Origin: a virus
IMG/VR virus record: IMGVR_UViG_3300037506_000184
Span: 1 to 64,000 of that record
Reading direction: 5' to 3' (one strand)
Length of the DNA: 64,000 bases
In this document: piece by piece, positions 22,186-45,374 of the stretch
Layout: the number at the start of each line of letters is the position of its first letter
Position numbering within the stretch: position 1 is the stretch's first letter
Notes under the pieces: model-generated
Databases searched by the model: none
Told to the model about the DNA's origin: nothing
Seen by the model: the letters and a program-made list of their open reading frames with translations, nothing else
Translations under genes and position numbers: made by a program

Positions 22186-23172
22186 ATGGCAGACTCTCTC
22201 GAGCAGATGGCGGGGGTTCCCGCCGTGGCAAGGCCGACCGGCCCGGCTTCGTCGTTCCTCGACCCGGCGAGCTTCGAGCTGATCCAGCGCGTGGCGGGCA
22301 TGTTCGCCAAGGCCGAGGTCGTTCCGCAGCGTTTCCGCGGCAAGGTCGGGGACTGCGTGATCGCGATCGACATGGCGAACCGGCTCGACGCCTCGATCCT
22401 GCAGGTCATGCAAGCGCTCTATTCCGTGCACGGCAATCCGAGCTGGTCGGCAAAGTTCTTGATCGCCTCGTTCAACCAGTGCGGGCGCTTCTCCTCGATT
22501 CACTACAGGTGGATCGGAGAGAGGGGCAAGGATACGTGGGGCTGCGTCGCCTGGGCGACCGAGAAAGCGACCGGCGAGACCATCGAGGGCCCGGAGATCA
22601 CGATCGCCCTCGCGAAGAGCGAGGGCTGGTACAACAAGAACGGCTCCAAGTGGCAGACGATTCCCCAGCTCATGCTGATGTACCGCGCCGCGGCGTGGCT
22701 CGTGAACACGCACGCGCCGGAGATCAGCATGGGACTCCGGACCGTGGAGGAGAACGAGGAGATCGAGCTCGAGCCCCGCGGTGACGGATCGTACGGGGCA
22801 CCGAACGGAAACGGCGAGGCGAAGAGCCGCTCGGACGCGCTGGCCAACCGCCTCGGCCTGAAGGACGCGGACAGCAACGGGAACAGCGACGGCGGCACGG
22901 TTGTCGTCGAGCAGGACCCCGCCCTCGTCGAGCGCTGCAACGACCTGATCCTTTCGATCAACAGCTTCCACGTCGACGAGCCCGACGCGGGCGTCGACGC
23001 CCTCGAGGCGGCCGAGAACCAGCGCGACCTCGCCGGCATGGACAACGAGCGTCTGGCCGGCGTCGAGAAGTACCTCCGCAATGTGCTCGCGCAGAAGGAG
23101 AAGCTGAGCGGCGCGAAGAAGCCCGCCGGCAAGAGCGAGCAGCTCGGCCTCGGTGGGAAGTCGGAGATCTGA
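22186..23172 (+). CDS. recT: RecT-family single-strand annealing protein
   Basis: RecT-like core present: IAIDMANRLDASILQVMQALYSVHGNPSWSAKFLIASFN...AKSEGWYNKNGSKWQTIPQLMLMYRAAAWL. It sits next to the YqaJ exonuclease. Confidence 0.85.
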   Translation: MADSLEQMAGVPAVARPTGPASSFLDPASFELIQRVAGMFAKAEVVPQRFRGKVGDCVIAIDMANRLDASILQVMQALYSVHGNPSWSAKFLIASFNQCGRFSSIHYRWIGERGKDTWGCVAWATEKATGETIEGPEITIALAKSEGWYNKNGSKWQTIPQLMLMYRAAAWLVNTHAPEISMGLRTVEENEEIELEPRGDGSYGAPNGNGEAKSRSDALANRLGLKDADSNGNSDGGTVVVEQDPALVERCNDLILSINSFHVDEPDAGVDALEAAENQRDLAGMDNERLAGVEKYLRNVLAQKEKLSGAKKPAGKSEQLGLGGKSEI

Positions 23173-23247
23173 ACACCACGAGCCGTTAGGCGGCAGCGGT
23201 GAGAGCGCGGGGTGCCGCCATACAATCCCGCGTTTCGGAGCACCCAC

Positions 23248-25575
23248 ATGACCATGCACATCCACACCACGGGCATGAAGGCCCGCGACCTTGACCTGGA
23301 TCTTCCGGGGCCGTGCGTCTTGCTCGTCGGCTGCACCGGCTCAGGCAAGAGCACGATCCTCGATGCAATCCGCATCGCCGCCCTTCGCCACGTCCCTGCC
23401 CTCGGAAAAACCGAGGCGGCAACGGCGCAGCTCATGTCGGGCCGCGAGCTCTCCGTGACGTTGGCGCTCCCCGGCAAGCGCGTGATCCGCCAGAAGCTCA
23501 CCAAGGGCGCGCGGGGCAATCTCTCATGGGCGACCGAGTGCTCCTGGCTCGGCCCCGAAGCGAAGGATACCGAGCATGCGGCCGAGGCGCTCCGCCTCTT
23601 CGGCGAGGACGCAACCGCCGTCGCCGAGTGTCTCGACCTCCGGTCTCTGCTCGCCCTCTCCGGCCCACAGCGCACGGCCCGGATCGAGCAGCTCATGGCC
23701 ACCGAGACCGACCCGGACGCCCAAGCGCTCAGGCTTGCCCGTTACGCCTTCCAGCGCCTGGCCGATGTCGACGACCAGCGCATGAAGGACGTCGCCGATC
23801 ACACCACACTCCGGCCGCTCATCAACGGTTGGGACAAGGACGGCGCCCACGCCGGCCAGTACGCGAGCCTCGCTGAGGTCTGGCCGATGGTGAAAGCGAA
23901 GCTCACGGCCGAAGGCGGGCTCACCAGCGCCGCGGCGTGGGTGAACGAGGAGAAGCGCGCCGGCGCATTGGACCTCGCGAAGAAGGAGCGGGCCCGCGAC
24001 GAGCTCGCCCTTCGGCTCCAGGAGATCGCCGATCCCGACGCCGACGAGATCGCCCGCCTCGAAGAGACGCGCGCAGCACTCGACCAGCACATCGGCGCCG
24101 CCGGCGAGCGGGCGTCGGAAGCGATGCGACGCCGAAACGAGATCGGCAAGGCCGATGCGGCGCTCAGCCGTGCCAAGGCGGAGGCCGCAACGGCGCTGAC
24201 CGCGCGCCAGCGCTACGAGCAGGACGCCGCGGCCGCCGGCGATTGGAAGGCACGGCTCGAGGAGATCGAGGCCGAGCTCGAGGCCATCGTCACCGGCGCC
24301 ACGCCGGACCCGGGCGCTTCGGTCGAAGCCGAGCGGCGCGCTCAGATCGAGGAGCGGCTCTCTGCTCTCGCGGAGGAGATCGCCACGGCCGAGGGTGCCA
24401 TCCCGGCCGAGCCGATCAGCACGGACGCCCTGGCCGCCGAGATCGCCTCCCTGATGCGCCAGCTCCAGGCCGCGCGCGCGAACCCGTGGGCGGAGGTGCG
24501 GATGCTCGCCGCCGATATCCGGGAGCAGGCGAGCCGCATCCCGAAGGCCAAGGAGATCAGCAAGAAGGCCGATCGCCTCGTCGAGATCGCCGGCGCCAAC
24601 GTTGACGATCCCGCGGCGCTCACGGCCGCGATCGAGGCGAAGGAGGCCGAGAAGGCGCGCGCCGAGAAGGAAGCGAGCGGCATCCGCGAGAAGCGACGCT
24701 ACGCGCAGGAGGCCCTCGCCAAGCTCCTCGGCGAACGCGACGAGCTACGGCTGGAAGCGCACCAGGTGAAAGAGCAGATCGACGCCGCGAAGCGACAGGC
24801 CGACTCCGCCACCTTCGACCGCCGAACGAAGCTCACGGTCGAGCGCACCGACCTCCGCCACAAGCTGGAGATGCTCTCCAGGCGCGACCGCGAGACGGAG
24901 AAGGCCGCCGTCACCACCGGCGAAGCCCTACGCTCCGCTGAGGCTCTCAGGCTTCAGCTCGGCGACGCACCCGAAGACGTTGCAGGCGTCGATGAAGCGT
25001 TGACCGCCGAGCGCGACGAGGTGGCCGGTCGGCTTTCGCGAATGCTGGATGCCCGTGCGCAGCACCGGCAGCTCGCCGACGTCATCGCCGAGATCAACCG
25101 CCTCGGTGCGCGGCATGCCGTGCTGCTCGCGATCGAGGATGCGTGCAAGCGGCTCCGCGCCGATGAGGTGGCCGCGCAGGGCGGCCCGCTCCTGGAGATC
25201 CTGACGACGTACCTTCGCGCGGCGGGACGCACCGAGACGCCGTACATCGTGGCCAACCGGACGAGCTGCGACTTCGGATGGGTGCGCGGCGACAAGCAGG
25301 TATCGATCGCCGCGATGTCGGGAGGTGAGTGGGGACTCTTCGCGGCTGGTCTCACGGCGGCGCTCCTCATTCTCAGGGCCGCGCCCGTGCGGATTTTGCT
25401 CGTCGAGAGCGCCGAGCTCGACACGCCCACACTGCAGCAGATGCTCCGCGGCATCGCGGCGCTGAAGAGCGAGCTGACCGCGTGTCTCGCCGCTGCATGG
25501 CACGGCGAGAGCGTGAAGGTTGACGGTTGGACGGTGCTGCGGGCGAGCGGCGAGCGTATCGCTGAGGCCGCATGA
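23248..25575 (+). CDS. SMC/Rad50/SbcC-like coiled-coil ATPase
   Basis: Walker A is VGCTGSGKST. About 500 aa of coiled coil follow. The ABC signature MSGGEWGL and a degenerate Walker B RILLVESAELD lie near the C-terminus. Confidence 0.7.
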   Translation: MTMHIHTTGMKARDLDLDLPGPCVLLVGCTGSGKSTILDAIRIAALRHVPALGKTEAATAQLMSGRELSVTLALPGKRVIRQKLTKGARGNLSWATECSWLGPEAKDTEHAAEALRLFGEDATAVAECLDLRSLLALSGPQRTARIEQLMATETDPDAQALRLARYAFQRLADVDDQRMKDVADHTTLRPLINGWDKDGAHAGQYASLAEVWPMVKAKLTAEGGLTSAAAWVNEEKRAGALDLAKKERARDELALRLQEIADPDADEIARLEETRAALDQHIGAAGERASEAMRRRNEIGKADAALSRAKAEAATALTARQRYEQDAAAAGDWKARLEEIEAELEAIVTGATPDPGASVEAERRAQIEERLSALAEEIATAEGAIPAEPISTDALAAEIASLMRQLQAARANPWAEVRMLAADIREQASRIPKAKEISKKADRLVEIAGANVDDPAALTAAIEAKEAEKARAEKEASGIREKRRYAQEALAKLLGERDELRLEAHQVKEQIDAAKRQADSATFDRRTKLTVERTDLRHKLEMLSRRDRETEKAAVTTGEALRSAEALRLQLGDAPEDVAGVDEALTAERDEVAGRLSRMLDARAQHRQLADVIAEINRLGARHAVLLAIEDACKRLRADEVAAQGGPLLEILTTYLRAAGRTETPYIVANRTSCDFGWVRGDKQVSIAAMSGGEWGLFAAGLTAALLILRAAPVRILLVESAELDTPTLQQMLRGIAALKSELTACLAAAWHGESVKVDGWTVLRASGERIAEAA

Positions 25576-26831: not shown

Positions 26832-28748
26832 GTGGACGGACCGAAGGCACTTCACTTGTTCTCTGGCGTGGGCGGCGCGGCACTCGGTTTTCAACGCGCC
26901 GGCTTTCGTAGTGTTGGCGCTTTCGATTCAGACGCGTTGGCCTGCAAGGCGTTCGAGTATCTGACCGGCGATACACCAACGCGCGCCGACCTCTCGACGA
27001 TGAGTCCGGAGGAAATGCGGCAGGCCTGCCTCGATCGCCCTGACGTCGTGTTTCTGAGTCCACCGTGTAAGGGCCATTCGGGCTGTCTGCCGCAGGCGAT
27101 GGCGGACAGCGAGCGCTACCAGGAAATGAACGCGCTTTCGCTCCGCGGCATCTTCCTCGCCGTCGAGGCCTGGAAGACACCACCGCCGCTGATCGTCATG
27201 GAGAACGTACCGCGCATCACGTCGCGCGGGCGTCATTGGCTCGACCAGGTGAAGGGTCTGCTCGAGGGCTACGACTACGCCACGCGAGAGACGGTGCACG
27301 ACGCGGGCGAGCTCGGCGGCCTCGGACAGCGACGCAAGCGCTTCCTCCTCGTCGCACGCCACACGAAGCAGGTGCCGGCCTTCATGCGCGTCCCGCCGAA
27401 GAAGCCGCTCCGCGGCGTGGGTGAGATCCTCGGCCTGCTGCCGGTGCCGGTACCCGGTTCGACAGACGGCGGGCCCATGCACAAGCTGCCGCGGCTCTCG
27501 CCGAAGAACTGGGTGCGGCTCGCGCTCATCCCTGCCGGCGGCGACTGGCGCGATCTGCCGTCCTCGGTGGCGATCGTCGCAGGACCACACCGGCACTACG
27601 GCGGCCTCGGCGTGAACGCTTGGGACGATCCGAGCAAGACTGTCGTCGGCGCCGCCGATCCGAAGAACAAGCCGGTGAGCGTACAGGATCCGCGCCTCGG
27701 TCCGCGCGCTGCGCGACAGAATGGAGGCTTCGGGGTCAACGAGTGGAAGGACCCGAGCCATGCCGTGATCGCGGAGGGCAGCGTTCGCAACACGTGGTCC
27801 TCGGTTTCCGATCCGCGCATCGAAGGCTCGCCGCATCGCCACAACGGCAAGTACGGCGTCGAGAGCTGGGACGATCCGGCGCATGCGGTGATCGGGCAGG
27901 CGCGCACCGGTAAGGGCTGGGCTGGGGTGTCCGATCCGCGGGTGAATACTGCGGGGCCATCGGCCCACAACGGCCGCTTGGGCGTCGAGGATTGGGACGC
28001 GCCTTCGCATACGATCACGGGCCGCCTCGACGCGCGCACCCGCTGGGGATCGGTCAACGACCCTCGCCTCATGTGCTCGCCGCGCGCCGGCGTCTACGGC
28101 GTCGGCGACTGGAGCGAACCGGCCGGCGCAGTGATCGGCTCTGCGAGCCACGACAACGGCCGGCACAGTGTCGCCGACCCGCGGGTCACCTGCGAGCGCC
28201 GCGAGGGCTCGCTCGGTGTCACGGGCTGGGACGAGCCGAGCACCTCGGTGATCGCGAACGGGCGCATCCACAACGGCCCGTGGCAGGTTGCCGACCCGCG
28301 CCTCGACCACGAACCGCGCCGTGGCAGCTACGGTGTTACGGGCTGGGCTGAAGCGACGCACTGCGTCCGTGGCGTGCAGAAGATCCAGAACGGTGAGGCG
28401 AGCGTCGCGGACCCGCGCGTTCCCGAGATCGTCGGCCCCTACTTCGACATCGAGGACAACCGACCGCGCTACCTCGTGATCGTTGCCGCCGACGGTACCT
28501 GGCACCGGCCGATGACGACGCTGGAGCTCGCCGCGCTGCAGAACTTCCCGGTGCAGCATCGCGGCGGCTGGCTGCTACTTCCCGGCAACGATGCCGAGCG
28601 CCGTGAGCTGATCGGAAACGCCGTGCCTCCCGCGGCTGCGGAAGCGATCGCGCTTGCCTGTCTCGAGGTCCTCGCCGGCGCCGGCACGTTCAGGCTCTCG
28701 TCGGAGCCGATCTGGGTCGGGCCGGGAGAGAGGCTGATCGAGGCATGA
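26832..28748 (+). CDS. DNA (cytosine-5) methyltransferase with seven tandem ~40-aa repeats in the variable region
   Basis: C5 motifs in canonical order: LFSGVGG (I), SPPCKGHS (IV), ENVPR (VI), QRRKRFLLV (VIII), TTLELAALQNFP (IX), GNAVPP (X). Seven GxxGVxxWxxPSxxVxx...DPR units occupy residues ~256-531. Confidence 0.85.
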   Translation: MDGPKALHLFSGVGGAALGFQRAGFRSVGAFDSDALACKAFEYLTGDTPTRADLSTMSPEEMRQACLDRPDVVFLSPPCKGHSGCLPQAMADSERYQEMNALSLRGIFLAVEAWKTPPPLIVMENVPRITSRGRHWLDQVKGLLEGYDYATRETVHDAGELGGLGQRRKRFLLVARHTKQVPAFMRVPPKKPLRGVGEILGLLPVPVPGSTDGGPMHKLPRLSPKNWVRLALIPAGGDWRDLPSSVAIVAGPHRHYGGLGVNAWDDPSKTVVGAADPKNKPVSVQDPRLGPRAARQNGGFGVNEWKDPSHAVIAEGSVRNTWSSVSDPRIEGSPHRHNGKYGVESWDDPAHAVIGQARTGKGWAGVSDPRVNTAGPSAHNGRLGVEDWDAPSHTITGRLDARTRWGSVNDPRLMCSPRAGVYGVGDWSEPAGAVIGSASHDNGRHSVADPRVTCERREGSLGVTGWDEPSTSVIANGRIHNGPWQVADPRLDHEPRRGSYGVTGWAEATHCVRGVQKIQNGEASVADPRVPEIVGPYFDIEDNRPRYLVIVAADGTWHRPMTTLELAALQNFPVQHRGGWLLLPGNDAERRELIGNAVPPAAAEAIALACLEVLAGAGTFRLSSEPIWVGPGERLIEA

Positions 28749-29422
28749 TCCCTCGCCTGCAAATACTGGACGCCGCTGGCCTCGCCCACGCCCAAGCCGT
28801 CGTCGCGCGCCATCACTATCTCCGAAAGCCGGTCGACGTCCGCTGCATGCCCGAGGCGTACGCCATCCGCCTCGATTCCGTTCCGGGCCCGGTCGGCTTC
28901 TTCATCCTCGGGCGCCCGCAGGCCACGAAGTGTTTCCCTTGGTACGGATCGCTCGAGGAGACCGCGCGCGGCCGGGCCGAGGTGACCCGGTGGCAGGTTC
29001 TGAATCTCGCCCGGGTGTACTTCGACCCGCGCGTCCAGCCGGGCGGCGAGCGCTTCGGGGCCGGTTATCTGCCGGGCTTCGTCGACCGTCGGCACGCCTT
29101 CCGCTCGACGCTCGGCTCGGCGGCGATCACCGAACTCGCCCACCAGGTCGTGCGCGATTACCTGATCCGGCGGCCGCCCTGCTTTCTGGAGGAGCCGTAC
29201 GAGCTCCGCTGGCTGCTGTCCTATTGCGACACGCGGCTGCATCGCGGGACCCTCTATCGCGCCGCAGGCTTCGAGCTCTGGCGCACGAACGCGGCGGGCA
29301 TCCAAACGTGGCGCCGGCCACTACGGGCGCTGACGCCGGCGGAGGACGCGGAGGTGCGGGCGGCGGCGGAGAGTCACCCGCGATCGATTCGGTTTCGGGA
29401 GCAGCGGCGGAGGGCCGCCTGA
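28745..29422 (+). CDS. GNAT-fold-like HHYL-motif protein (Mom / XF1762 / DUF4338-like pattern); candidate DNA base-modifying enzyme
   Basis: ARHHYLRKP, GFFILGRPQA, VLNLARVYF and LLSYCDTRLHRGTLYRAAGFE match the pattern I associate with Mom-like and DruA-like acyltransferase-fold domains. This is recognition by pattern only. Confidence 0.4.
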   Translation: MIPRLQILDAAGLAHAQAVVARHHYLRKPVDVRCMPEAYAIRLDSVPGPVGFFILGRPQATKCFPWYGSLEETARGRAEVTRWQVLNLARVYFDPRVQPGGERFGAGYLPGFVDRRHAFRSTLGSAAITELAHQVVRDYLIRRPPCFLEEPYELRWLLSYCDTRLHRGTLYRAAGFELWRTNAAGIQTWRRPLRALTPAEDAEVRAAAESHPRSIRFREQRRRAA

Positions 29423-29760
29423 TGCGCTGCATCTCCTTCGCCGCCACGACTCCCCAGATCCGCGCCCGCACCAAGACCGTCACGCGCCGGATCGGCTGGT
29501 GGGATCTGAAGCCAGGAGATCGCCTGCTCGCCGTCGAGAAGTACCGTGGCGTGCGGCGAGAGAATCGCGTCGAGCTCGGCGTGATCGAGGTCGTGTCGGT
29601 GCGGAAGGAACGCCTGGACGCGATCACGCAAGAGGACGTCGAGCGCGAGGGCTTTCTCGGGATGTCGCCGGCCGAATTCGTCGAGTTCTTCTGTCGGCTG
29701 AATCGTTGCCGTTCGGACGCGAGGCCGAACCGGATCGAGTTTCGGTACGTGGAGGAGTGA
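29422..29760 (+). CDS. ASCH (PUA-like) domain protein
   Basis: TGATG overlap with the upstream stop. Motifs: MRCISFAATTPQIRARTKTVTRRIGW...LKPGDRLLAVEK. Confidence 0.6.
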   Translation: MRCISFAATTPQIRARTKTVTRRIGWWDLKPGDRLLAVEKYRGVRRENRVELGVIEVVSVRKERLDAITQEDVEREGFLGMSPAEFVEFFCRLNRCRSDARPNRIEFRYVEE

Positions 29761-30060
29761 ATGAGCCATCGAGACAACTGCCCTGACCGCTACACCGCAC
29801 GCCGCGAAGGCGAGCGCGCCTTCGACTACGGCCGCGGGATCTACAGCAACCCCTACGACGGCGGCTGCGACGAAGCCTCCGAGGAGTGGCGCCGCGGCTA
29901 CCGTGAAGCCGAGGACCGGCGGGGGGAAGAGGAAGCGGCCGAACGCACGGCAGAGCGTCGGCACCAGGAGTACCTCGACGAGCAGCGCTACCTCGAAGAG
30001 CGGTTCTACGCCGAGCAGTGTCCGGAGCAGCCGATGCCGGAAGAGGAGCCGCAAAAATGA
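29761..30060 (+). CDS. Hypothetical acidic 99-aa protein
   Basis: The ORF abuts the previous stop. No motif recognised. Confidence 0.4.
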   Translation: MSHRDNCPDRYTARREGERAFDYGRGIYSNPYDGGCDEASEEWRRGYREAEDRRGEEEAAERTAERRHQEYLDEQRYLEERFYAEQCPEQPMPEEEPQK

Positions 30061-30482
30061 ACGATCCACAGATCGGCACCGTGGCAGTCCTGAACGTCGG
30101 CGAGGGTGACCTGACGCTGACCTTCGACAAGTCGAAGCCCGCCGAGCGCGAGCGCGCCAAGAAGATCATCACCGACATGCTGGCGCGCGGCTATGCGATC
30201 CTCGTGCAGGTGGGCGAGCACGACGGCGAGCCGGTCTACCAGCGCGCCAAGGGCTTCGATCCCGAGACGTGCGAATATCTGATCGTCGGGGTTGCCGAGG
30301 ACGAGGCGCGCGTCACGACCGAAGGCAATGTGATCGTCCCCGAAGTGGTCGAAGCGGAGTTAGCCCCCGACATTCCGCCACCGGCACCTCTCAAGCGTGG
30401 TCGCCCCCGGAAACTGACGACCGAGCGCATCCCGGCCGAGAAGACGCGCACGGTCGCAGTGGCCCGGACGGCTGGCGGGTGA
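30057..30482 (+). CDS. Hypothetical protein with a C-terminal AT-hook-like KRGRPRK
   Basis: ATGA overlap at 30057 (MNDPQIGTVAVLNVGEGDLTLTF...). Confidence 0.45.
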   Translation: MNDPQIGTVAVLNVGEGDLTLTFDKSKPAERERAKKIITDMLARGYAILVQVGEHDGEPVYQRAKGFDPETCEYLIVGVAEDEARVTTEGNVIVPEVVEAELAPDIPPPAPLKRGRPRKLTTERIPAEKTRTVAVARTAGG

Positions 30483-30483
30483 G

Positions 30484-31302
30484 ATGGCGACCGCTGCTCA
30501 AAAGCGACGCGAGAAGAAGCGAAGCCGTCGACGACGGCGAATCGAGCGCGCCGGGAACCCGCCGCAAGGGCAGCGCCCCTCCTTCCGCGCCGGCGACAGC
30601 TTCGGCAAGGTGCGTCAGACGCTTCGCGGCATCGCCGCCATGTCGGGCGAGTGGGCCGGGATCCCGATGCCGCTCGACCACGCGAGACTCGTGGTTGAGC
30701 CAAATTATCCGTACGCGAAAGGGCTCGAATCTATCGCCCCGTCGCTGCCGATGTATGAGCGACCGAACGACGACGGCGAAGACTACGGCAAGTGGAAGGT
30801 CCGCAATCGGTTCTGGTCGGTGCGCAAGAGCTCCACCATAGTCGTCATGGAGAAGCCGGACGGATCGATCACGTGGGGAATCGACCCTGGCATCCACCAT
30901 CTCGGCCACGACCTCTCGACACTTGGCTGCGCGGAAGCCTGGGGCTTCGAGCAGGAGGCCAAGGCGCTGAAGCTGCTGGAGTCGATGGTCCGCCCGCACA
31001 AGTTCAAACAGTACGTGATGACGGGCATGTTCATGGACAAGAGCGACCGATCGGGCGTGATCTACCTGTTCCGCAGGCTGAAGCCGACGGTCGCAATGAC
31101 GCCGCATCGCCCGGACGGACGAATGGGCATCCTGGCCGCGCTCTGCATGCACCCGATCGCTTACTACGAGGGGTCCTGGGGCGGCTCGATGACGCCGACG
31201 GACGATGTAGTGGCGCATCTCGCTTTGATGCGGGGAGACGAGGCGATGTTCTGGCGGCGATCGAATCAGCACCCGCCGCATCGACCGGAGGCGGGGTTGT
31301 GA
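30484..31302 (+). CDS. Hypothetical 272-aa protein
   Basis: Basic N-terminus and globular remainder. No family recognised. Confidence 0.5.
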   Translation: MATAAQKRREKKRSRRRRRIERAGNPPQGQRPSFRAGDSFGKVRQTLRGIAAMSGEWAGIPMPLDHARLVVEPNYPYAKGLESIAPSLPMYERPNDDGEDYGKWKVRNRFWSVRKSSTIVVMEKPDGSITWGIDPGIHHLGHDLSTLGCAEAWGFEQEAKALKLLESMVRPHKFKQYVMTGMFMDKSDRSGVIYLFRRLKPTVAMTPHRPDGRMGILAALCMHPIAYYEGSWGGSMTPTDDVVAHLALMRGDEAMFWRRSNQHPPHRPEAGL

Positions 31303-31476
31303 GCGGCTCTTCCAACCTCGGCCCGTGCTGCGCCTGTCGCGGTACCGAGGTTCGCACGATGGTCGCGATCGAGCGCCTCTCACCGCACAACAGCCAATGC
31401 TCGCCGCGGTTCACGACCGGGAGTCACGATACATGCTCCGCGTGGACGGCGACGACGCCGGGCGAGGAGGATTGAG

Positions 31477-32247
31477 ATGAAGCTAGACCGCGTGACGATC
31501 ACGGGCGCCGACGATTCGGTCGACCCGGTCGACCTGCTGAAGCTCTCGGCGGAATTTCCGTTCGTCGAGTGGGCACTGCTGTTCAAGCACCAGAACGACG
31601 AGTCGCCGCGCCCGCGCTGGCCTCGTTTGCGCTGGTTCGAGACGCTCTTCGAGCTGGTGCGTGGGCGCAGCACGACTCCGCAATTCGCCCTGCATCTCTG
31701 CGGCATGCCGTGCGTGCGCTTTCTGGAGTCGTCGCCTTCCCTCTTCAGCGGTGACCACGAGAGCGTCCCGGGTGGCCTGCTTCAGCTCTGCCGACGCATC
31801 CAGCTGAACACGCACGGGGAACCACACGGTTGGGCTCCGCCGACGGCGATCGCGCTTGTTTCCTTCGAACGTCTGCCGCTCACCGAGATCATCTGCCAGA
31901 TCGACGGCGGCTGTGGCATTAGCCTCTTTCGTGCCCTCGCAGCCGAAGAAATGTACGTGTTCCCGTTCTACGACCTGAGCCACGGCGCGGGCGTGCTGCC
32001 GAAGGAGTGGCCAGCGAACTATCTCGACAAAGACGGTTCCGTTGAAGTCACCTACTGCGGCTACGGCGGAGGCCTCGGTCCCGAGAACGTCGAGCAGGAG
32101 CTGCCGCGCATCGCCGAAGCGGCCGGCGGTCGGTTCTGGATCGACATGGAGACGAAGGTGCGCAGCCAGGTCGACGGCCGCGACGTCTTCGACCTGGAGA
32201 AGGTGCGGCGGGTGCTGGAGATCTGCGCGCCGTACGTGGAGGGGTGA
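31477..32247 (+). CDS. TIM-barrel protein resembling phosphoribosylanthranilate isomerase (TrpF-like)
   Basis: ITGADD at the N-terminus, then ALHLCG, RIQLNTHG, and the C-terminal GYGGGLGPENV...WIDMETKVR...D..KV. These parallel PRAI blocks. This is pattern recognition only. Confidence 0.45.
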   Translation: MKLDRVTITGADDSVDPVDLLKLSAEFPFVEWALLFKHQNDESPRPRWPRLRWFETLFELVRGRSTTPQFALHLCGMPCVRFLESSPSLFSGDHESVPGGLLQLCRRIQLNTHGEPHGWAPPTAIALVSFERLPLTEIICQIDGGCGISLFRALAAEEMYVFPFYDLSHGAGVLPKEWPANYLDKDGSVEVTYCGYGGGLGPENVEQELPRIAEAAGGRFWIDMETKVRSQVDGRDVFDLEKVRRVLEICAPYVEG

Positions 32248-32693
32248 TGCGCGCCCTATCGCTCTGGCAGCCGTGGGCGTCGTACATGGCCTGCGGCTTC
32301 AAGCTCGTTGAAACGCGCCCCTGGGCGACGCCGTACAAGGGCCTCGTCGCGATCCATGCTGCGAAGACGCGCGAGGACCTCGACATGACCCAGGACCTCT
32401 GGGAGCTGCTCTCCGAGGACGCTCGCCGTCGCGGGTTTCTCACGCCCGATCCGCTGCCGCTCGGCGCCATCGTCGCCGTCGGTAAGCTGACCGGCTGCGC
32501 GAGGACTACGAGCCTGGTTCGGTCGATCAGCGACGACGAGAAGACGCTCGGCAACTACGAGCCCGGCCGGTGGGGATGGGTGTTCGAGGACATTCGGCGG
32601 CTGCCGGAGCCGATGCCGTACAAGGGCGAGCGCGGGTTGTGGGAGCTGCCGGCGGAGATCAGGGGGCGGCTGAAGGAAGCGGTTGGGCTGTGA
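32244..32693 (+). CDS. ASCH domain protein (second copy)
   Basis: ATGA overlap with the upstream stop. ALSLWQPWASYMACGFKLVETRPW is the classic ASCH opening. Confidence 0.65.
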   Translation: MMRALSLWQPWASYMACGFKLVETRPWATPYKGLVAIHAAKTREDLDMTQDLWELLSEDARRRGFLTPDPLPLGAIVAVGKLTGCARTTSLVRSISDDEKTLGNYEPGRWGWVFEDIRRLPEPMPYKGERGLWELPAEIRGRLKEAVGL

Positions 32694-32914
32694 TGAGACC
32701 GCACACCTGCCACGCGCGCGGCTGCCCGGTTGCCGTGCCGCCGAAGATGCTCATGTGCCGCCGGCACTGGTTCATGGTGCCGAAGCTGCTCCGGGATCGT
32801 GTCTGGGCGACATACCGGACCGGCCAGGAAGAGGGCAACGCCGACGTCACAAGGGAATACCTCGACGCGGCAGACGCGGCGATCGAAGCGGTGGCGGCGA
32901 AGGAAAAGCGGTGA
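32693..32914 (+). CDS. Small zinc-binding protein, 73 aa
   Basis: TGATG overlap with the upstream stop (MRPHTCHARGCPVAVPPKMLMCRRHW...). Confidence 0.45.
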   Translation: MRPHTCHARGCPVAVPPKMLMCRRHWFMVPKLLRDRVWATYRTGQEEGNADVTREYLDAADAAIEAVAAKEKR

Positions 32915-33738
32915 TGCAGCACCGCCTCCCGATCCCGACCAAGCCGGAGCTGTCCCAATGGTGGACGCCTGAATGGGCGGCTGCCCTCCTGGTCGAGCAC
33001 CACTTCGCCGATCTCTCGGAGAGCGATCGCGTCCTCGAGCCGACGTGTGGCCGCGGCGCCTGGCTGAAGGCCGTCCCGGCGAACGTGCCGGCGATCGGCG
33101 TCGAGATCGACGAGGACGTCGCGCGGCGCGCCGCCGAGGACACCGGGCGCCAGGTGCTCATCGGCGACTTCCGCCGGGTCGAGCTGCCGTGGGATCCTAC
33201 GCTCGTTGTCGGCAATCCGCCGTTCGTCACCGACCTGGTTGACGAGCTCCTCGAGCACGCGCGCCGCTGGCTCCCGTCGAACGGCCGCTGCGGGCTTCTG
33301 CTCCCGGCGTACACCTTTCAGACGCCGCGGCGCGTGACTAGGTGGGCGCGCGACTGGTCGATCGCGACCGAGCTGGTACCGAGGACGCTCTTCATGCGGT
33401 CGCGGCTGCCGCTCGTCTTTGCGCTGTTCACCAAGAGCGAGATGCGCACGATGACCGGGCTCGCCCTCTACCGCGAGTGCTCCGACCTCGAGCGGGTGAG
33501 CGCCGGGGCGCGCCTCGTTCTCGTGCACGGGCGATCGAGACAGAGCGTCTGGCGTGCCCTGGTGGCGGCGACGCTGGCTGAGCTGGGCGGCGAGGCGTCC
33601 CTCCCCGAGCTCTACGCGGCGATCGAGCCGCGCCGGCCGACGCCGAACGGGTTCTGGCGGGAGAAGGTCCGCCAGGTGGTGCAGATCGATTGCGAATCGC
33701 CGTCGCGCGGGGTTTGGCGGCTGAGAGGTGCGGCATGA
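32914..33738 (+). CDS. N6-adenine-type DNA methyltransferase (NPPF)
   Basis: Motif I is VLEPTCGRGAW and motif IV is VVGNPPF. TGATG overlap with the upstream stop. Confidence 0.75.
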   Translation: MQHRLPIPTKPELSQWWTPEWAAALLVEHHFADLSESDRVLEPTCGRGAWLKAVPANVPAIGVEIDEDVARRAAEDTGRQVLIGDFRRVELPWDPTLVVGNPPFVTDLVDELLEHARRWLPSNGRCGLLLPAYTFQTPRRVTRWARDWSIATELVPRTLFMRSRLPLVFALFTKSEMRTMTGLALYRECSDLERVSAGARLVLVHGRSRQSVWRALVAATLAELGGEASLPELYAAIEPRRPTPNGFWREKVRQVVQIDCESPSRGVWRLRGAA

Positions 33739-34817
33739 GCGACAACAGCAAGATTTCGTGGTGCGATGCCTCGTGGAATCCTATTCGGGGCTGCTCCCGC
33801 GTCTCTCCCGGCTGCGGCGATAGCCACGGCGGCGGATGCTACGCCGAGCGCCAGGCGCACCGCTTCTCCGGCCCCGGCAAACCGTACGAGGGGCTGACCA
33901 AACTCACCGCACACGGCCCGCGATGGACGGGCAAGGTGCGGCTCGTGCCGGAGCTGCTCGACTGGCCGCTGCGGAAGAAGAAGCCGCTGCGTGTGTTCGT
34001 GAACTCGATGAGCGATCTGTTCCACGAGGGACTGAGCGACGAGGAGATCGCCGTCGTGTTCGCCGTGATGGCCCTCGCGCCGCAACACTGCTTTCAAGTG
34101 CTGACAAAACGTCCTGAGAGAATGCGCCGCTGGTTCGAGTGGCTACGTTCCGGCGACCTGCGCGAGGCTCCGGAGCAGCGGACCCTCGGACTGGCCCTTG
34201 CGCACGCCTGGCGCGAGGGGGCGGCCGGCATCGTCGGTCCGCTCGTGCGCGGCGAGTTGGAGTGGCCGCTGCCGAACGTGTGGCTCGGCGTCTCGGTCGA
34301 GAACCAAGCGACCGCCGACGAACGCATTCCGCTGCTGCTCGACACGCCGGCAGCGGTGCGGTGGATCAGTGCGGAGCCGCTATTGGAGGTGGTGCGGCTG
34401 GAGTCGAATCTGGTCGACCCGGAATATTGCTGCTGGCACTGTGGCGCGCAGATCATTCGCGGCCCTGGCAATAGCTACCAGGATGAGCGAAGGCTCCTCC
34501 GCAACTGTGTCGTGTGCAAGGCATCTCTCGACGGCAGGCGCCGGCTCGATTGGGTGGTAGCTGGCGGCGAAAGCGGCCCATCGGCCAGGCCCTGCGACGT
34601 GCGGTGGATTCGCTCGCTGCGCGACCAGTGCCAGGCGGCGGGAACGAAGGTGTTCGTCAAGCAGCTCGGGTCGCGGCCGGTCTTCCAGGGTGCCGACGTC
34701 GACATGAGCCTGCAGATCGACGGCCCGAGCCTGAGACTGCGCCACAAGGCCGGCGCCGATCCTTCCGAATGGCCGGAGGATCTCAGGGTGCAGGAGTTTC
34801 CCGACTCTGCGGGATGA
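33735..34817 (+). CDS. Phage Gp37/Gp68 family protein (DUF5131) with an inserted zinc ribbon
   Basis: Family motifs present: ISWCDASWNPIRGCSRVSPGC, VFVNSMSDLFH, VLTKRPERM, WLGVSVENQ, WISAEPLL, WVVAGGESGPSARP, FVKQLG. The insert is CCWHCG...CVVC. Confidence 0.85.
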   Translation: MSDNSKISWCDASWNPIRGCSRVSPGCGDSHGGGCYAERQAHRFSGPGKPYEGLTKLTAHGPRWTGKVRLVPELLDWPLRKKKPLRVFVNSMSDLFHEGLSDEEIAVVFAVMALAPQHCFQVLTKRPERMRRWFEWLRSGDLREAPEQRTLGLALAHAWREGAAGIVGPLVRGELEWPLPNVWLGVSVENQATADERIPLLLDTPAAVRWISAEPLLEVVRLESNLVDPEYCCWHCGAQIIRGPGNSYQDERRLLRNCVVCKASLDGRRRLDWVVAGGESGPSARPCDVRWIRSLRDQCQAAGTKVFVKQLGSRPVFQGADVDMSLQIDGPSLRLRHKAGADPSEWPEDLRVQEFPDSAG

Positions 34818-35253: not shown

Positions 35254-36196
35254 CCTTACCGACAAGAAGGACACCAAGCTCGCCACGGCGGCTGAGCTGC
35301 GGGCAGAGTATGATTTCATGCGCAACGAACTGGAAGCGGGGACGGCAGTCGTTAGCTTCGGCTATCTCGATGGATTAGCCTCACGCGCCATCGCCGCTCT
35401 CGCCGCCGCCGAACAGCGCGTCGGCGAGTTGGAGAAGGCACACCGCCGTTTTCCGCTGACGACAGGTGGCAGCGTGCCGTGGCTTCTCGGCGAGGAAGGA
35501 TACCGCACCTACGCTAAGTTCAACGGGAACGACCAGTCCATCGAGCGCATGGCGCAGCGCGGCGGGTTTGCCTTCGAGGAGTTGGCGTGCCTGGTTCAGG
35601 GTCACACGGGCTACGGACAGCCGCAACACCTCGACTGCATCGAAGCCCTCAGGCGGCGCCTGTCGGCTGAAGAAGCCGAGCGTCAACGCGCGGTAGCCGC
35701 CGAGGCGGAAGTGGCGCGGCTGCGCGCGGAGAACCAACAACTCGCAAACGACATCGAGCCGATGCGCCGAGCGATCTACGATGCCGAGGAGGAACTGGAG
35801 GAAGCCGGGCGGCCCGAAGGGGAGTACCTGCAGACCGGGATTGCAGCACTGCGCGGGCAGGTGGCGGCGCTGCGGGAGTTGGTGGAACGCGAAGCCGCAT
35901 GGTGGTGCAAGACTTCCAAAACGAACCGGCTGGCGGGATCGAACATCTTGACGCTGCAGCTCACGGTGAACGGCAGCGCAGCGCATGCTTCCAATCTGCA
36001 AGCCGCTGTCGCTACTGCTCTCGGCACCGCCGCCGCCCACGACGCCCGCATCCGCACCGAGGGACACGCGGCAGGCGTCGCCGAGGAGCGGGCACGAGCG
36101 CTGGACATCGCGCGGGCGCACTTCTCCGACGTGTACTGCGTCGACAAGCTGCGGGCGTTCGAGGAAGAGTTGGCGACGGAGGAGCCGACGACGTGA
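35246..36196 (+). CDS. Coiled-coil protein, 316 aa
   Basis: An in-frame GTG at 35246 overlaps the upstream stop. Contains long heptad-like segments. Confidence 0.45.
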   Translation: MSDLTDKKDTKLATAAELRAEYDFMRNELEAGTAVVSFGYLDGLASRAIAALAAAEQRVGELEKAHRRFPLTTGGSVPWLLGEEGYRTYAKFNGNDQSIERMAQRGGFAFEELACLVQGHTGYGQPQHLDCIEALRRRLSAEEAERQRAVAAEAEVARLRAENQQLANDIEPMRRAIYDAEEELEEAGRPEGEYLQTGIAALRGQVAALRELVEREAAWWCKTSKTNRLAGSNILTLQLTVNGSAAHASNLQAAVATALGTAAAHDARIRTEGHAAGVAEERARALDIARAHFSDVYCVDKLRAFEEELATEEPTT

Positions 36197-37980
36197 TGAT
36201 CAAACTCGCCGAAGACCTTTCTTTCCCCATCGACCTCGCCGGCCAGACTCTGCTCATCGTCGGCAAGCGCGGCAGCGGCAAGTCTACGACCTGCGTCCGC
36301 ATCGCCGAGGAGTTCTTCGCGGCGCAGGTGCCGTTCGTCGTGATCGATCCGACGGATACGTGGTGGGGTCTCAAGTCCTCTCGCGACGGCAAGGCGCCCG
36401 GGCTCGGCGTCTACGTCTTCGGCGGCCGTCACCAGGATCTGCCGCTCGAGCCAACCGGCGGCATGCTCGCTGCCGACGTCGTGATCGACAACGGCATCTC
36501 GGCCGTGTTCTCGACGAAGCACTTCACCGGCAAGGATCGGAGCCGCTTCGTCACCGACTTTGCCGGCCGGCTGCTACAGCGCAACGCGTCGTCGCTGCAT
36601 GTCTTCCTCGAAGAGGCGCACGAGGCCGCGCCCCAGAATCCGTTCAAGGCCGACCGCGAGCACGAGATGCTCTCCCGCGTGACGCGCATTTGGAAGCTTG
36701 GCCGCGCTTCCGGGCTCGGTGGTAGCGCCATCACTCAGCGTCCGGCATCGCTGTCGAAGGACATCACGACGCAGGCCGAAATCCTCATCGTCCATCGCAT
36801 GCTCGGCCCGCAGGACGTCGCCGCGGTGAAGGAGTGGATCAAGTACCACGGCGAGCGCGACGACATCCTGGCGCAGCTCTCGACGCTCAGAACGGGCGAA
36901 GCGTTCGTCTGGGCGCCAGACTTCCCGGAGGACAAGCCGATCGGGCTCAGGCGCGTGCGCATCCTGCCGCGCACTACGTTCGATTCGTCGGCCACTCCGA
37001 AGGCCGGGCAGCGGCGTGCTGAGCCGAAGGAGCTGGCGCCCGTCGACCTCGAACGACTCAGCGCCGCGATGGCCGCGACCATCGAGCGCGCGAAGGCAGA
37101 CGATCCGAAGGAGCTGCGCCGGCGGATCCAGCAGCTCGAGCGCGAGCTCGCCGCGGCGAAGAAGGCGGCGCCGGCGGCCGAGCGCGTCGAGGTACCGGTG
37201 CTGAGCGCCACGCAGACCGAGCTACTCAATGGGCTCACGAGCCGCGTCGAGCTGGCGCTCGATCAGATCTCCGGGCTCCGTAGGGGAATCGCTGCCACTG
37301 ACGAGCACTGCCTGGCGGTCAAGGATGAGGTGGGCCGCCTCTGGGCCGAGATCGCCGCAGCTACGGGCGCGCGCCCGGTAGCGACCGCCTGCTCCGTCCC
37401 TGCCCGCCCCGAGACGCGGCGCGCGGTGGCGAAGATGGCGGAGCATGCGGCGAGCAACGGCCGCAAGCCTACTGCGACACCGCCCGATGGCCCGCTCACC
37501 GGCCCGGAACAGCGCATCCTCGACGCGATCGCCTGGCTCGAAGGCATCGGCGTCACCGAGCCCGAGCAAACGGCCGTCGCGTTTCTCGCCGGCTACGCGT
37601 ACGGCGCCGGCTCATTCAACAATCCGAAGGGCCGACTCCGCGCCCGCGGCTTCGTTGACTACCTGCCGCAGAATCGAATCCGGCTGACCGACGCAGGCCG
37701 CCCGTACGCGAATCATCCCGACGCGCCGCTTACCGCTGAGGCGATGCACGAGCATGTGCTCGGCCGCCTGCCAGGACCGGAGCAACGAGTGCTGCGTCCG
37801 CTGCTCGACGCCTACCCGAACAGGGTGGCAAAGGATGCGCTGGCGGTGGCTGCGGGTTACACGCCGGGCGCAGGCTCGTTCAACAATCCCTGCGGCCGCC
37901 TGCGATCGCTTGGGCTGATCGACTACCCGGAGCCGGGGTTCGCGGTGGCGCGGGGGATTTTGTTTTTGCGGTTCGAGTGA
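36196..37980 (+). CDS. HerA/FtsK-superfamily (DUF87-like) P-loop ATPase with two C-terminal winged-helix repeats
   Basis: Walker A is IVGKRGSGKST and Walker B is LHVFLEEAHE, followed by ITQRPASL. The tail has duplicated PGPEQR(I/V)L...AGY..GAGSFNNP.GRLR..G units. Confidence 0.7.
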   Translation: MIKLAEDLSFPIDLAGQTLLIVGKRGSGKSTTCVRIAEEFFAAQVPFVVIDPTDTWWGLKSSRDGKAPGLGVYVFGGRHQDLPLEPTGGMLAADVVIDNGISAVFSTKHFTGKDRSRFVTDFAGRLLQRNASSLHVFLEEAHEAAPQNPFKADREHEMLSRVTRIWKLGRASGLGGSAITQRPASLSKDITTQAEILIVHRMLGPQDVAAVKEWIKYHGERDDILAQLSTLRTGEAFVWAPDFPEDKPIGLRRVRILPRTTFDSSATPKAGQRRAEPKELAPVDLERLSAAMAATIERAKADDPKELRRRIQQLERELAAAKKAAPAAERVEVPVLSATQTELLNGLTSRVELALDQISGLRRGIAATDEHCLAVKDEVGRLWAEIAAATGARPVATACSVPARPETRRAVAKMAEHAASNGRKPTATPPDGPLTGPEQRILDAIAWLEGIGVTEPEQTAVAFLAGYAYGAGSFNNPKGRLRARGFVDYLPQNRIRLTDAGRPYANHPDAPLTAEAMHEHVLGRLPGPEQRVLRPLLDAYPNRVAKDALAVAAGYTPGAGSFNNPCGRLRSLGLIDYPEPGFAVARGILFLRFE

Positions 37981-43829: not shown

Positions 43830-45374
43830 TTGCCGCGAGTCTACACCAGCAAGCCCATGTGCTACAAGGCGCGCATGGCCACCGCGGCCGAAGCCGAGGC
43901 GCTCACCGAGGACCTCGACGAGCTGGTCAAGCACCTGACGCCCGAGGAGCGCGCCGAGCTGGACGGGCTCATGCTGTCGCTGCCCGTGAGCCTCCGGACG
44001 TTCGTTCGCGGCGCGTGGTCGATCATCGAGCCGGGGACGGAGATCACTTGGGGGTGGCATCTCGACGCCATCTGCGACCACCTGGAAGCGGTCACTCGTG
44101 GTGAAATCCGCGATCTTCTGATCTGCGTCCCGCCTCGATTCTCGAAGTCGACCGTGGCGTCGGTGTGCTGGCCGGCTTGGGCATGGACCATCAACCCTGC
44201 ATGGCGGTTCCTCTGCTCCAGCTACAGCTCAGATCTCTCCATGCTTCACGCCGTGGCATCGCGGCGCGTGATCGAGCATCCCTGGTTTCAGGCGCGATGG
44301 GGCCAGCAGTTTCGCCTCACCACCGACCAGAACGTAAAGATGAACTTCGAGAACGATCGGCGCGGCATGCGCATCTCGACATCGACCGGCGCCACGGTGA
44401 CCGGGCTGGGCGGTGACTTTTTGGCCTGCGATGATCCGCACAACATCATCAAGGTACAGAGCGACGCGATCCGCGAAGCCGACGTCCGCTGGTTCAAGAG
44501 CGCATGGACGACCCGGCGAAACGATCCGAAGAAGAGCGCGCGCGTCGTGATCCTCCAGCGTGCGCACGAAAAGGATGTCGCCGCCGAGTGCATCAGCCAA
44601 GGCTTCGCGCAGCTCGTGCTCGCCAACGAATACGACGGGCGAAAGTGGTCGAGTCCGGTGCTGAACCGCGACACGGGGAAGCCGTGGAAGGATCCGCGAA
44701 CGAAGAAGGGCGAGCTGCTCTGCCCTGCCCGCCTGGACGCGGCGGCAACGAAAGCGCTCAAGACGAAGGAGCTCGGAAGCTACGGATACGCCAGCCAATT
44801 TCAGCAGCAGCCGCAGCCCCCCGGCGGCGGCATCTTCAAGCGGAAGAACTGGCAGTATTACCGGATCGCCCCCGCCGACCTAGAGCTCATCATTCATTCC
44901 TGGGACATGAGCTTCAAGGACCTGGAGACGTCCGACTACGTCGTCGGTCAGGTCTGGGGGAAGCGGCGCGCCGATGCCTTCCTGCTCGATCAGGTGCGCG
45001 AGCAGATGGGAATCACCGCCAGCCTCGCCGCCGTGCGGGCGCTCCGCGCCAAGTGGCCGGCGACGTCGGGAATCTACGTCGAGGACAAGGCCAACGGCCC
45101 GGCGGTGATCGAGCTGCTGAAGCGCGAGATCCCCGGCATCGTCGCCGTCCAGGCCGAGATCTCGAAAGTCGCCCGTGCCCGCGCCGTCGAGCCGTTCCAG
45201 CAGTCGGGCAACGTCTTCCTGCCGTTCGAGGCCCCGTGGCTCGAGGACTATCTCGACGAGCTGGCCAAGTTCCCGCGCGGCCAGAACGACGACCAGGTCG
45301 ACGCGACGACGCAGGCGCTCAGGGTGCTCTTTCTCCGCGAGGCGGCAGTGGAGCAGAAGGCAAACCTTTGGTAG
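43830..45374 (+). CDS. terL: Terminase large subunit
   Basis: Motifs present: FVRGAWSIIEPGTEITWGWHLDAICDHLEAV, LLICVPPRFSKST, and the C-terminal nuclease-domain pattern ending FPRGQNDDQVDATTQAL. The start may instead be the ATG at 43875. Confidence 0.85.
   Translation: MPRVYTSKPMCYKARMATAAEAEALTEDLDELVKHLTPEERAELDGLMLSLPVSLRTFVRGAWSIIEPGTEITWGWHLDAICDHLEAVTRGEIRDLLICVPPRFSKSTVASVCWPAWAWTINPAWRFLCSSYSSDLSMLHAVASRRVIEHPWFQARWGQQFRLTTDQNVKMNFENDRRGMRISTSTGATVTGLGGDFLACDDPHNIIKVQSDAIREADVRWFKSAWTTRRNDPKKSARVVILQRAHEKDVAAECISQGFAQLVLANEYDGRKWSSPVLNRDTGKPWKDPRTKKGELLCPARLDAAATKALKTKELGSYGYASQFQQQPQPPGGGIFKRKNWQYYRIAPADLELIIHSWDMSFKDLETSDYVVGQVWGKRRADAFLLDQVREQMGITASLAAVRALRAKWPATSGIYVEDKANGPAVIELLKREIPGIVAVQAEISKVARARAVEPFQQSGNVFLPFEAPWLEDYLDELAKFPRGQNDDQVDATTQALRVLFLREAAVEQKANLW

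Follow-up and report, generated by a model that had tools for sequence, protein, structure and literature searches.

Some phages carry multi-gene clusters for DNA hypermodification, among them the DpdA/Que clusters for 7-deazaguanine and those for thymidine hypermodification, and what defines such clusters is the co-occurrence of their genes in different lineages. The Mom protein of phage Mu, encoded by a single gene that is located among anti-restriction genes, is a GNAT enzyme that moves glycine from Gly-tRNA(Gly) onto the N6 atom of adenine in double-stranded DNA, leading to N6-carbamoylmethyl-dA (dA, deoxyadenosine); its first product is N6-glycyl-dA, an amide, and the adduct then undergoes rearrangement on the base, with no further enzyme being involved (PMC13219725). 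A further described group is that of the ASCH proteins, where every member that has been tested so far acts on N4-acetylcytidine (ac4C) nucleosides or tRNA, not on DNA (PMC6972931; bioRxiv 10.64898/2026.02.27.708502). Here, we are concerned with a locus in which relatives of Mom and of the ASCH proteins occur side by side: an 8-kb stretch (positions 26832-34817) of a viral DNA window of 64,000 nucleotides (IMG/VR virus record IMGVR_UViG_3300037506_000184, positions 1 to 64,000), where 11 tightly packed genes, all on the + strand, encode in this order an orphan C5 cytosine DNA methyltransferase, a Mom-like protein, a first ASCH protein (ASCH1), a 99-residue protein, an AT-hook protein, a 272-residue protein, a TIM-barrel protein, a second ASCH protein (ASCH2), a 73-residue Cys/His-rich protein, an N6-adenine DNA methyltransferase and a DUF5131 protein. 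A first-pass annotation of this sequence had proposed that these genes form a single undescribed base-modification pathway, where DNA-modifying “writers” are paired with ASCH “readers” or “erasers”.

After comparison with related loci, we regard this island as a phage anti-restriction and modification cluster that includes a Mom-family enzyme, and not as a new system; we consider it likely to be a mosaic of independently mobile cassettes, with parallel anti-restriction genes and accessory genes gathered at a hotspot. The island resembles the hypermodification clusters in that nucleic-acid-modifying genes are densely grouped in a phage genome, and TGT genes (DpdA-like) are found near Mom-like genes elsewhere; the co-occurrence across lineages that defines those clusters, however, was looked for among the genes of the window and was not found, except for the pair of the AT-hook and the 272-residue protein.

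Our comparative analysis has covered 80 viral loci of the TIM-barrel family, about 64 non-redundant loci of the Mom-like family (17 viral, 3 contig-lookup, 6 genome and 66 metagenome loci were gathered, and duplicates were then removed), 56 viral loci of the 272-residue family and 4 loci of ASCH1. No examined locus reproduces the full composition of the island, and subsets of it occur apart; the conservation of the neighbourhood that a single pathway would call for is absent, and the genes do not co-occur in related phages, an outcome that the first-pass annotation had itself named as contradicting its proposal. Of the 80 TIM loci, 1 contains a Mom-like gene, 4 contain ASCH2 (in no case adjacent), 7-8 contain DUF5131 and none contains ASCH1; clustering of the neighbouring genes by BLAST gives no conserved neighbour, the sole recurrent clusters being antisense shadows of the TIM gene. 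The genes that are located 3' of the TIM gene (78 loci) are varied, encoding tyrosyl-tRNA synthetase (TyrRS), DUF1643, SSB, deoxyribosyltransferase-like, SLOG and other proteins, and ASCH is absent from the 25 commonest families at this position.

The proposed pairing of a writer with an ASCH reader or eraser is contradicted by the same comparison at the Mom-like gene: ASCH is the downstream gene in 0 of 64 loci and the upstream gene in 1 of 61 (both by Pfam), with an ASCH2 homolog located upstream in 2 loci according to phmmer. The ASCH2-type genes that we have observed directly upstream of Mom-like genes are L210:4465-4971, L231:687-1184 and L095:7161-7742 (locus, followed by positions); this adjacency, which amounts to 2-3 of about 61 loci, is the only recurrence of ASCH with Mom that was found, and it is too rare to indicate linkage. 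Homologs of ASCH1, searched for with trimmed queries, occur in 0 of 80 TIM loci and 0 of 17 Mom loci. An iterative hidden Markov model had placed ASCH1 in 10 of these 17 Mom loci, and this result was rejected as an artefact: the longest open reading frame (ORF) around ASCH1 extends backwards, in a different frame, across the Mom gene, and the apparent co-occurrence arose because the profile had learned out-of-frame Mom sequence. On the four viral contigs with ASCH1 homologs, no other island gene is present within 5 kb. Of the 28 non-redundant loci where the Mom-like gene has 3 kb or more of sequence on both sides, 6 contain DUF5131, which is thereby the island family that is commonest near Mom-like genes; the C5 methyltransferase type of the window is found in 3, the TIM barrel in 2 and ASCH2 in 2, while ASCH1, the AT-hook protein, the 272-residue protein, the 73-residue protein and the N6 methyltransferase are found in 0.

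The subsets that occur elsewhere differ from one another. On contig L176, homologs of the C5 methyltransferase (41% identity), the Mom-like protein (65%) and DUF5131 (45%) are directly adjacent, without the genes that part Mom from DUF5131 in the window, and a TIM homolog is located 3.5 kb upstream. On the phage contigs L100-L102, the order is ASCH1 (78%), a 107-residue gene, the TIM barrel (61%), a 107-residue gene, ASCH2 (76%), an 87-residue gene and DUF5131 (59%), with no homolog of Mom, of the C5 or N6 methyltransferase, or of the AT-hook and 272-residue pair. A prophage that adjoins integrase and smpB genes carries the TIM gene (60%) and none of the other island genes. Separate subsets of this kind are the pattern that is predicted by modular exchange at a hotspot, and not by a pathway.

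We regard the island as an instance of a modification/anti-restriction hotspot, with enzymes stacked in parallel, because Mom-like genes tend to have other genes for DNA modification around them. Of the 125 genes that immediately flank Mom-like genes, 15 encode DNA methyltransferases, which belong to three unrelated families; PAPS-reductase-like, DUF5131, TGT and Lar genes are also found there, and the three closest Mom-like homologs that were looked up have C5 and N6/N4 or Dam methyltransferase genes as neighbours. Within 3.5 kb of the Mom-like gene, the matches from 15 viral loci include PAPS_reduct (6) and N6_N4_Mtase (5). For comparison, methyltransferases account for 6 of the 150 genes that flank the 272-residue pair, and the commonest families that follow the TIM barrel include none. 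Around Mom-like genes, up to a distance of 3.5 kb, the Pfam family met most often is PAPS-reductase-like (e.g. L162:4846-5823); the window contains no such gene.

The dense concentration of DNA-modifying genes that was claimed by the first-pass annotation is real, and its family assignments are mostly right. The Mom-like gene (28745-29422, + strand; 225 residues), described there as a GNAT-fold-like, Mom-like “HHYL” protein, starts within an ATGA overlap with the stop codon of the C5 methyltransferase gene. The window protein by itself scores 21.4 bits against the Mom family PF25680, below the Pfam gathering cut-off of 27.1, and its match is limited to residues 153-183; PF25680 is matched, however, by 49 of 50 homologs (53-68% identity; E <= 0.01; best 1.5e-9), and phrog_1384 (“Mom-like DNA modification protein”) is matched at 3e-7. 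Besides one chance-level reovirus match, Mom is the only Pfam family that is matched. The alignment of the family with Mu Mom by hhalign (E 1.2e-3, probability 19%) pairs residues H24, Y25, R90, S125, D162, R164 and Y171 of the window protein with H58, Y59, R111, S124, D149, R151 and Y159 of Mu Mom, which a structural and mutational study from 2026 has identified as active-site or essential residues (PMC13219725). Within the family, H24, R90 and Y171 are invariant, Y25, S125 and D162 are at least 90% conserved, and R164 varies in some homologs. We accept membership of the Mom family because of the family-level matches to PF25680 and phrog_1384, together with the aligned essential residues, which are mostly conserved; to judge from these similarities, the HHYL protein is a distant member that is probably active. 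The additional label “DruA-like” is dropped, as there is no PADLOC match at E <= 0.01. Through the HHYL protein alone, as a member of the Mom family, chemistry that goes further than methylation is plausible, as had been suggested, but the mechanism in question, a glycyl-tRNA-dependent adenine modification, is already known.

The Mom-like family comprises 440 homologs or more, of which most come from high-GC phages in environmental samples; a scan of a genome collection has located 6 loci, all in metagenome-assembled genomes (Gemmatimonadota, Chloroflexota, Roseobacter), and has pointed to no host for the window. In the Mom family, the GNAT fold carries an HTH-like insertion that is required for activity. 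A profile search against PDB sequences has returned nothing significant for the Mom-like protein, and a tblastn search against GenBank phages has returned no match. Like Mu Mom, the window protein is phage-encoded and the product of a single gene among anti-restriction genes; unlike Mu Mom, it carries additional insertions that separate the conserved motifs, its C-terminal region differs, and its gene is not accompanied by a Com-like regulator, but is translationally coupled to a C5 methyltransferase instead. Two Mom-like paralogs located 4.2 kb apart were also observed on one viral contig (L082:7920-8669 and L082:12123-12839; the same in L083).

The two ASCH proteins belong to different types: the GKTR type, of which YqfB is an example, is resembled by ASCH1, and the GKER type, of which TRIP4, EOLA1 and TthASCH are examples, is resembled by ASCH2. 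ASCH1 (29422-29760, + strand; 112 residues; K-T-R) scores 21.2 bits against PF04266, which is exactly the Pfam cut-off, and is 28% identical to E. coli YqfB (BLASTP, E 2e-4); its residues K18, T21, R22/R23 and E76 are located opposite the catalytic residues K21, T24, R26 and E74 of YqfB, which form the Lys-Thr-Glu triad and the Arg oxyanion hole. The residues H70 and Y89, which are part of the substrate framework of YqfB, are not kept in ASCH1, where D72 and an Arg align with them, and a search against PDB sequences has returned nothing significant. The TGATG overlap that couples ASCH1 to the Mom-like gene is present as the first-pass annotation had described it, and the ASCH1 protein carries the catalytic K/T/R/E set. 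ASCH2 (32247-32693, + strand; 148 residues; K-E-R) matches the ASCH domain of human TRIP4/ASC-1 in PDB structures 8yxw and 2e5o (phmmer, E 7e-8 over residues 5-144) and phrog_3193 (8e-35), and contains the octapeptide GFKLVETR, which corresponds to the motif G-x-K-x-x-E-x-R; the Pfam ASCH profile alone gives only 14 bits. A second ASCH gene that overlaps the TIM-barrel gene is thus present as described, but the junction is GTGA/TGATG and not ATGA. In a recent survey, 19 of the 19 ASCH proteins that were tested, from both motif types and including the TRIP4 type, removed ac4C from tRNA (bioRxiv 10.64898/2026.02.27.708502). The substrates of the known ASCH amidohydrolases are ac4C nucleosides and tRNA, not DNA, whereas ASCH1 and ASCH2 are phage-encoded and predicted; by analogy with the tested proteins, the two are more likely to be N-acyl amidohydrolases that act on ac4C in tRNA or nucleosides.

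The TIM-barrel protein (31477-32247, + strand; 256 residues) belongs to an uncharacterised phage family of at least 1711 homologs, with no match in Pfam, PHROGs or NCBIfam at E <= 0.1. An AlphaFold2 model that was built with 60 homologs (pLDDT 90.3, pTM 0.90) is a TIM barrel, and the comparison of this model with the PDB by Foldseek retrieves DUF1341/aldolase-like proteins, PRAI (1nsj, 1lbm, 1v5x), CutC and the KDO8P/DAHP synthases at generic TM scores of about 0.5; the DUF1341 aldolase-like and PRAI matches have E values of 3e-5 to 1e-3 and TM scores of 0.5-0.64, with the three PRAI structures at E 1e-4 to 1e-3 and TM 0.62-0.64, normalised to the length of PRAI. The viral structure library BFVD holds no relative. 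The only part that profile searches align with PRAI is the C-terminal phosphate-binding motif (Y-A-G-G-L-G-P-D-N), and this below significance: 1v5x is matched at E 2 in a profile search of the PDB, and the comparison with the PRAI domain of E. coli by hhalign gives E 0.012 and probability 3.5% over 31 columns. The catalytic pair of PRAI consists of a Cys on strand 1, which is spanned by no alignment, and an Asp on strand 6; as judged by eye, an invariant Thr of the family (in “VTITGAD”) stands where PRAI has the Cys, and D166, on strand 6, is likewise invariant. The earlier description of a PRAI/TrpF-like barrel therefore holds for the fold and for the phosphate-binding motif (Foldseek, AGGLGP-N), but not for membership in the TrpF sequence profile, which no library match supports. 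The protein shares with PRAI the barrel fold and the (A)GGL-x-P-x-N motif, and differs from it in being about 50 residues longer and in belonging to a phage-borne family; no tryptophan genes are found among the scanned genes 3' of the TIM family. The protein probably binds a phosphorylated sugar or nucleotide-like ligand. Members of the family were also observed in very large uncultured phages (GenBank LR756501/LR756503, 735 kb; LR745206, 635 kb), and in three loci the TIM gene is located directly upstream of a TyrRS gene.

Three proteins of the island had been described as orphans, one of them with an AT-hook; the AT-hook is indeed present, as the motif RGRPRK, but the AT-hook protein and the 272-residue protein belong to large conserved families, and the third protein is weakly similar to ribosome modulation factor (RMF). 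The AT-hook gene (30057-30482, + strand, starting at ATG 30057; 141 residues) and the gene of the 272-residue protein (30484-31302, + strand) form the only conserved multi-gene unit inside the cluster: the AT-hook homolog is located directly upstream of the 272-residue family in 53 of 56 viral loci. The surrounding genes are varied, and include integrases, DUF5131 (near the pair in 14 of 56 loci), C5 methyltransferases, ParB, YqaJ and RecT. For the 272-residue family, at least 848 homologs (50-60% identity) were counted, and Pfam matches none of them; the AlphaFold2 model of the protein is confident (pLDDT 86.6, pTM 0.76) and has no fold match in the PDB (best Foldseek E 0.45), where a sequence search has also returned nothing significant. 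Some His, Cys and Asp residues of the protein are invariant and could serve as metal ligands. A candidate for a third conserved gene after the 272-residue protein was rejected, as the cluster in question consists of shadow-frame ORFs fused to unrelated downstream genes. The 99-residue protein (29761-30060, + strand; also listed with phrog_1757) scores 23.6 bits against the RMF family PF04957, just under the cut-off of 27.9, with nearly the whole profile being spanned. The 73-residue protein (32693-32914, + strand) is a putative zinc ribbon, with the pattern C-x4-C ... C-x2-H and a match to phrog_18063 at 9e-22.

The methyltransferase and DUF5131 assignments of the first-pass annotation are borne out by our searches. 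The C5 methyltransferase (26832-28748, + strand; 638 residues) matches PF00145 (3.2e-23, in two stretches), phrog_116 (5e-53) and PADLOC MTase_II (1e-41), and its translation shows motifs I (FSGVGG), IV (PPCKG), VI (ENVP) and X (GNAVPP); over parts of its length, the gene has about 70% DNA identity to the C5 methyltransferase genes of the Pseudomonas phages phiCTX and Dobby. As in the orphan phage C5 methyltransferases of the phiCTX orf41/phrog_116 type, the catalytic motifs are the same and no cognate restriction enzyme is located nearby; in contrast to these, its variable region consists of seven tandem units of about 41 residues (window 27570-28420, residues 247-529 approximately), situated between the catalytic core and motifs IX/X. 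The units follow the pattern G-x-x-G-V-x-x-W-D-x-P-S-x-x-V-x-G ... V-x-D-P-R, with DPR ends at residues 286-529; they are detectable only in the protein, with no repeat at the DNA level, and number 6-9 or more in the homologs of L163, L013, L041 and L176. In L161 and L162, a different C5 methyltransferase family was observed to adjoin the Mom-like genes, with tandem “EPL-x-TVTA...VVAP” units of its own. The N6-adenine methyltransferase (32914-33738, + strand; 274 residues) has motif I as EPTCGRG, followed by motif IV as NPPF, and matches PADLOC mad2 (3e-15), several Type II methyltransferase models, and phrog_799 and phrog_6263 (both “DNA methyltransferase”); its Pfam matches are weak, and it has no PDB sequence match. 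The DUF5131 (Gp37/Gp68) protein (33735-34817, + strand; 360 residues) is assigned unambiguously by PF07505 (2e-76; 257 bits against a cut-off of 28.9) and phrog_2045 (5e-92), and strongly matches the PADLOC candidate defence components PDC-M41B (1e-57) and PDC-M30B (1e-55); DUF5131 is listed in megacluster 5-2 of the radical SAM superfamily (PMC9477430).

The gene set of the island rests on three approaches that agree: the ORF listing, a filter on codon-position GC (GC3), and gene calls that were made independently on a second assembly of this phage. The genes are co-directional and packed, as had been reported, but their number is 11, with no twelfth gene. All junctions are ATGA, TGATG or 0-1 nucleotides, save for one gap of 174 bp (31303-31476), in which no gene is called and no promoter-like or terminator-like site or Rfam match was found; no promoter-like or terminator-like signal above chance was found in the cluster as a whole, and no Rfam family or tRNA within the window. 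A DNA-level search against GenBank phages has matched only the C5 methyltransferase and DUF5131 genes, at about 70% identity, and has provided no related annotated phage for synteny. The window, with a G+C content of 63-70%, is a high-GC tailed phage or prophage, where the cluster is located in the early (recombination/replication) region, between RecT/SbcC-like genes and packaging genes. On its 5' side, the + strand encodes a YqaJ-like exonuclease, a RecT-like protein (22186-23172), an SbcC-like ATPase (23212-25575) and a phage metallopeptidase (26043-26552); on its 3' side are a HerA-like ATPase (36196-37980), the large terminase (43830-45374) and the portal protein (45547-48225). The HerA/FtsK-like ATPase has a long C-terminal extension and matches phrog_2666 (“terminase large subunit”, 1.7e-14), with the canonical large terminase being located 6 kb beyond it; the portal protein has 892 residues, its C-terminal domain matches the head-morphogenesis families phrog_3517 and phrog_2468, and it resembles a portal-morphogenesis fusion.

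If the island is a mosaic, it would be a fast-evolving accessory part of the early operon, with cassettes that are transcribed as one tightly coupled unit. We infer the biochemical activities and the anti-restriction role from the protein families: the C5 and N6 methyltransferases would methylate the phage DNA, while the Mom-like enzyme would most likely act in the manner of Mu Mom, which uses glycyl-tRNA, and move an aminoacyl group from a charged tRNA to the N6 atom of adenine in double-stranded DNA; the three enzymes would thus modify the phage's own DNA in parallel, allowing host restriction to be evaded. ASCH1, ASCH2, the TIM barrel, the AT-hook and 272-residue pair, the zinc protein and DUF5131 would have separate accessory functions and share the insertion hotspot. 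Several points weigh against this explanation. The TIM, C5 methyltransferase, Mom and DUF5131 genes of L176 all lie within 6 kb, and the relative represented by L100-L102 keeps ASCH1, the TIM barrel and ASCH2 close together; ASCH1 has kept the amidohydrolase catalytic set and directly follows an acyl-transferring enzyme; the hhalign match of the Mom-like family to Mu Mom is weak; and the detection of neighbours has rested on simple ORF calling and on the sensitivity of Pfam and phmmer. The translational coupling by ATGA and TGATG also fits a functional linkage, although such coupling is the norm in phage early operons.

Several other readings can be weighed. The island could act as one hypermodification pathway, in which ASCH proteins serve as readers or erasers for the writers and a sugar-phosphate moiety is provided or rearranged by the PRAI-like barrel, leading to an undescribed base; the co-directional, coupled genes, the acyl-type chemistry of Mom-family enzymes on adenine, the YqfB catalytic residues of ASCH1 and the PRAI-like phosphate-binding motif of the TIM barrel agree with this, but the composition recurs in no other examined locus, ASCH never follows the Mom-like gene, the TIM family has no conserved neighbour, the subsets of L176 and L100 are separate, and Mu Mom requires no partner enzyme (PMC13219725), so that we give a single pathway very little credence. 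A narrower, lineage-specific partnership of the Mom-like protein with ASCH1, where ASCH1 would hydrolyse misplaced or intermediate N-acyl adducts on DNA, RNA or nucleotides and thereby limit toxicity or alter the final product, would account for the TGATG overlap, which couples translation, and for the conservation of the K/T/R/E residues of the YqfB triad and oxyanion hole, and it fits the amide nature of N6-glycyl-dA, the first product of Mu Mom; we nevertheless consider it quite unlikely, given that a 78%-identical ASCH1 is found in a phage without Mom, that four further ASCH1 loci also have no Mom, that an ASCH gene flanks the Mom-like gene in a single upstream case by Pfam, and that the substrate-recognition residues H70 and Y89 of YqfB are not conserved. 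It is very unlikely, in our estimate, that the Mom clade uses another aminoacyl-tRNA or acyl donor and that the resulting amide is processed by the coupled ASCH1, possibly together with the PRAI-like barrel, into a base that is not yet described. It is also conceivable, if unlikely, that only the C5 methyltransferase, the Mom-like protein and the N6 methyltransferase concern DNA modification, with ASCH1, ASCH2, the TIM barrel and DUF5131 acting on RNA or nucleotides, for example in ac4C removal from host tRNA, in nucleotide salvage or in interference with host defence signalling. The uniform ac4C removal from tRNA by the ASCH proteins of the survey (bioRxiv 10.64898/2026.02.27.708502), the presence of TyrRS, nucleoside deoxyribosyltransferase-like, SLOG, PfkB kinase and RNA-repair domains among the neighbours of the TIM gene, and the DUF5131 models among the PADLOC candidate systems point in this direction; the TIM neighbours, however, are too varied to indicate one process, and no other family is met as frequently as DUF5131 in the vicinity of Mom-like genes and DNA methyltransferases. 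Such a division of roles overlaps with the mosaic explanation and does not exclude it.

If the island is a mosaic of cassettes, it is one more phage variable region that collects anti-restriction modification enzymes, which is useful for annotation and unsurprising; it also provides leads at the level of its families. The strictly conserved module of the AT-hook and 272-residue proteins, the latter having a confident model without a match among solved folds, and the large phage-borne TIM-barrel family, with its PRAI-like phosphate site and no annotation in the searched libraries, could be new nucleic-acid enzymes (at least 850 and at least 1700 members, respectively). The 41-residue units of the C5 methyltransferase, which vary in copy number, may bear on the evolution of target recognition. 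Lastly, the Mom-like proteins form a sizeable clade of the Mom family that is far from Mu Mom and in which the aligned catalytic residues are conserved; the tRNA-dependent mechanism of Mom was published only in 2026, and the amino acid that is moved by such a divergent clade would probe the generality of that chemistry.

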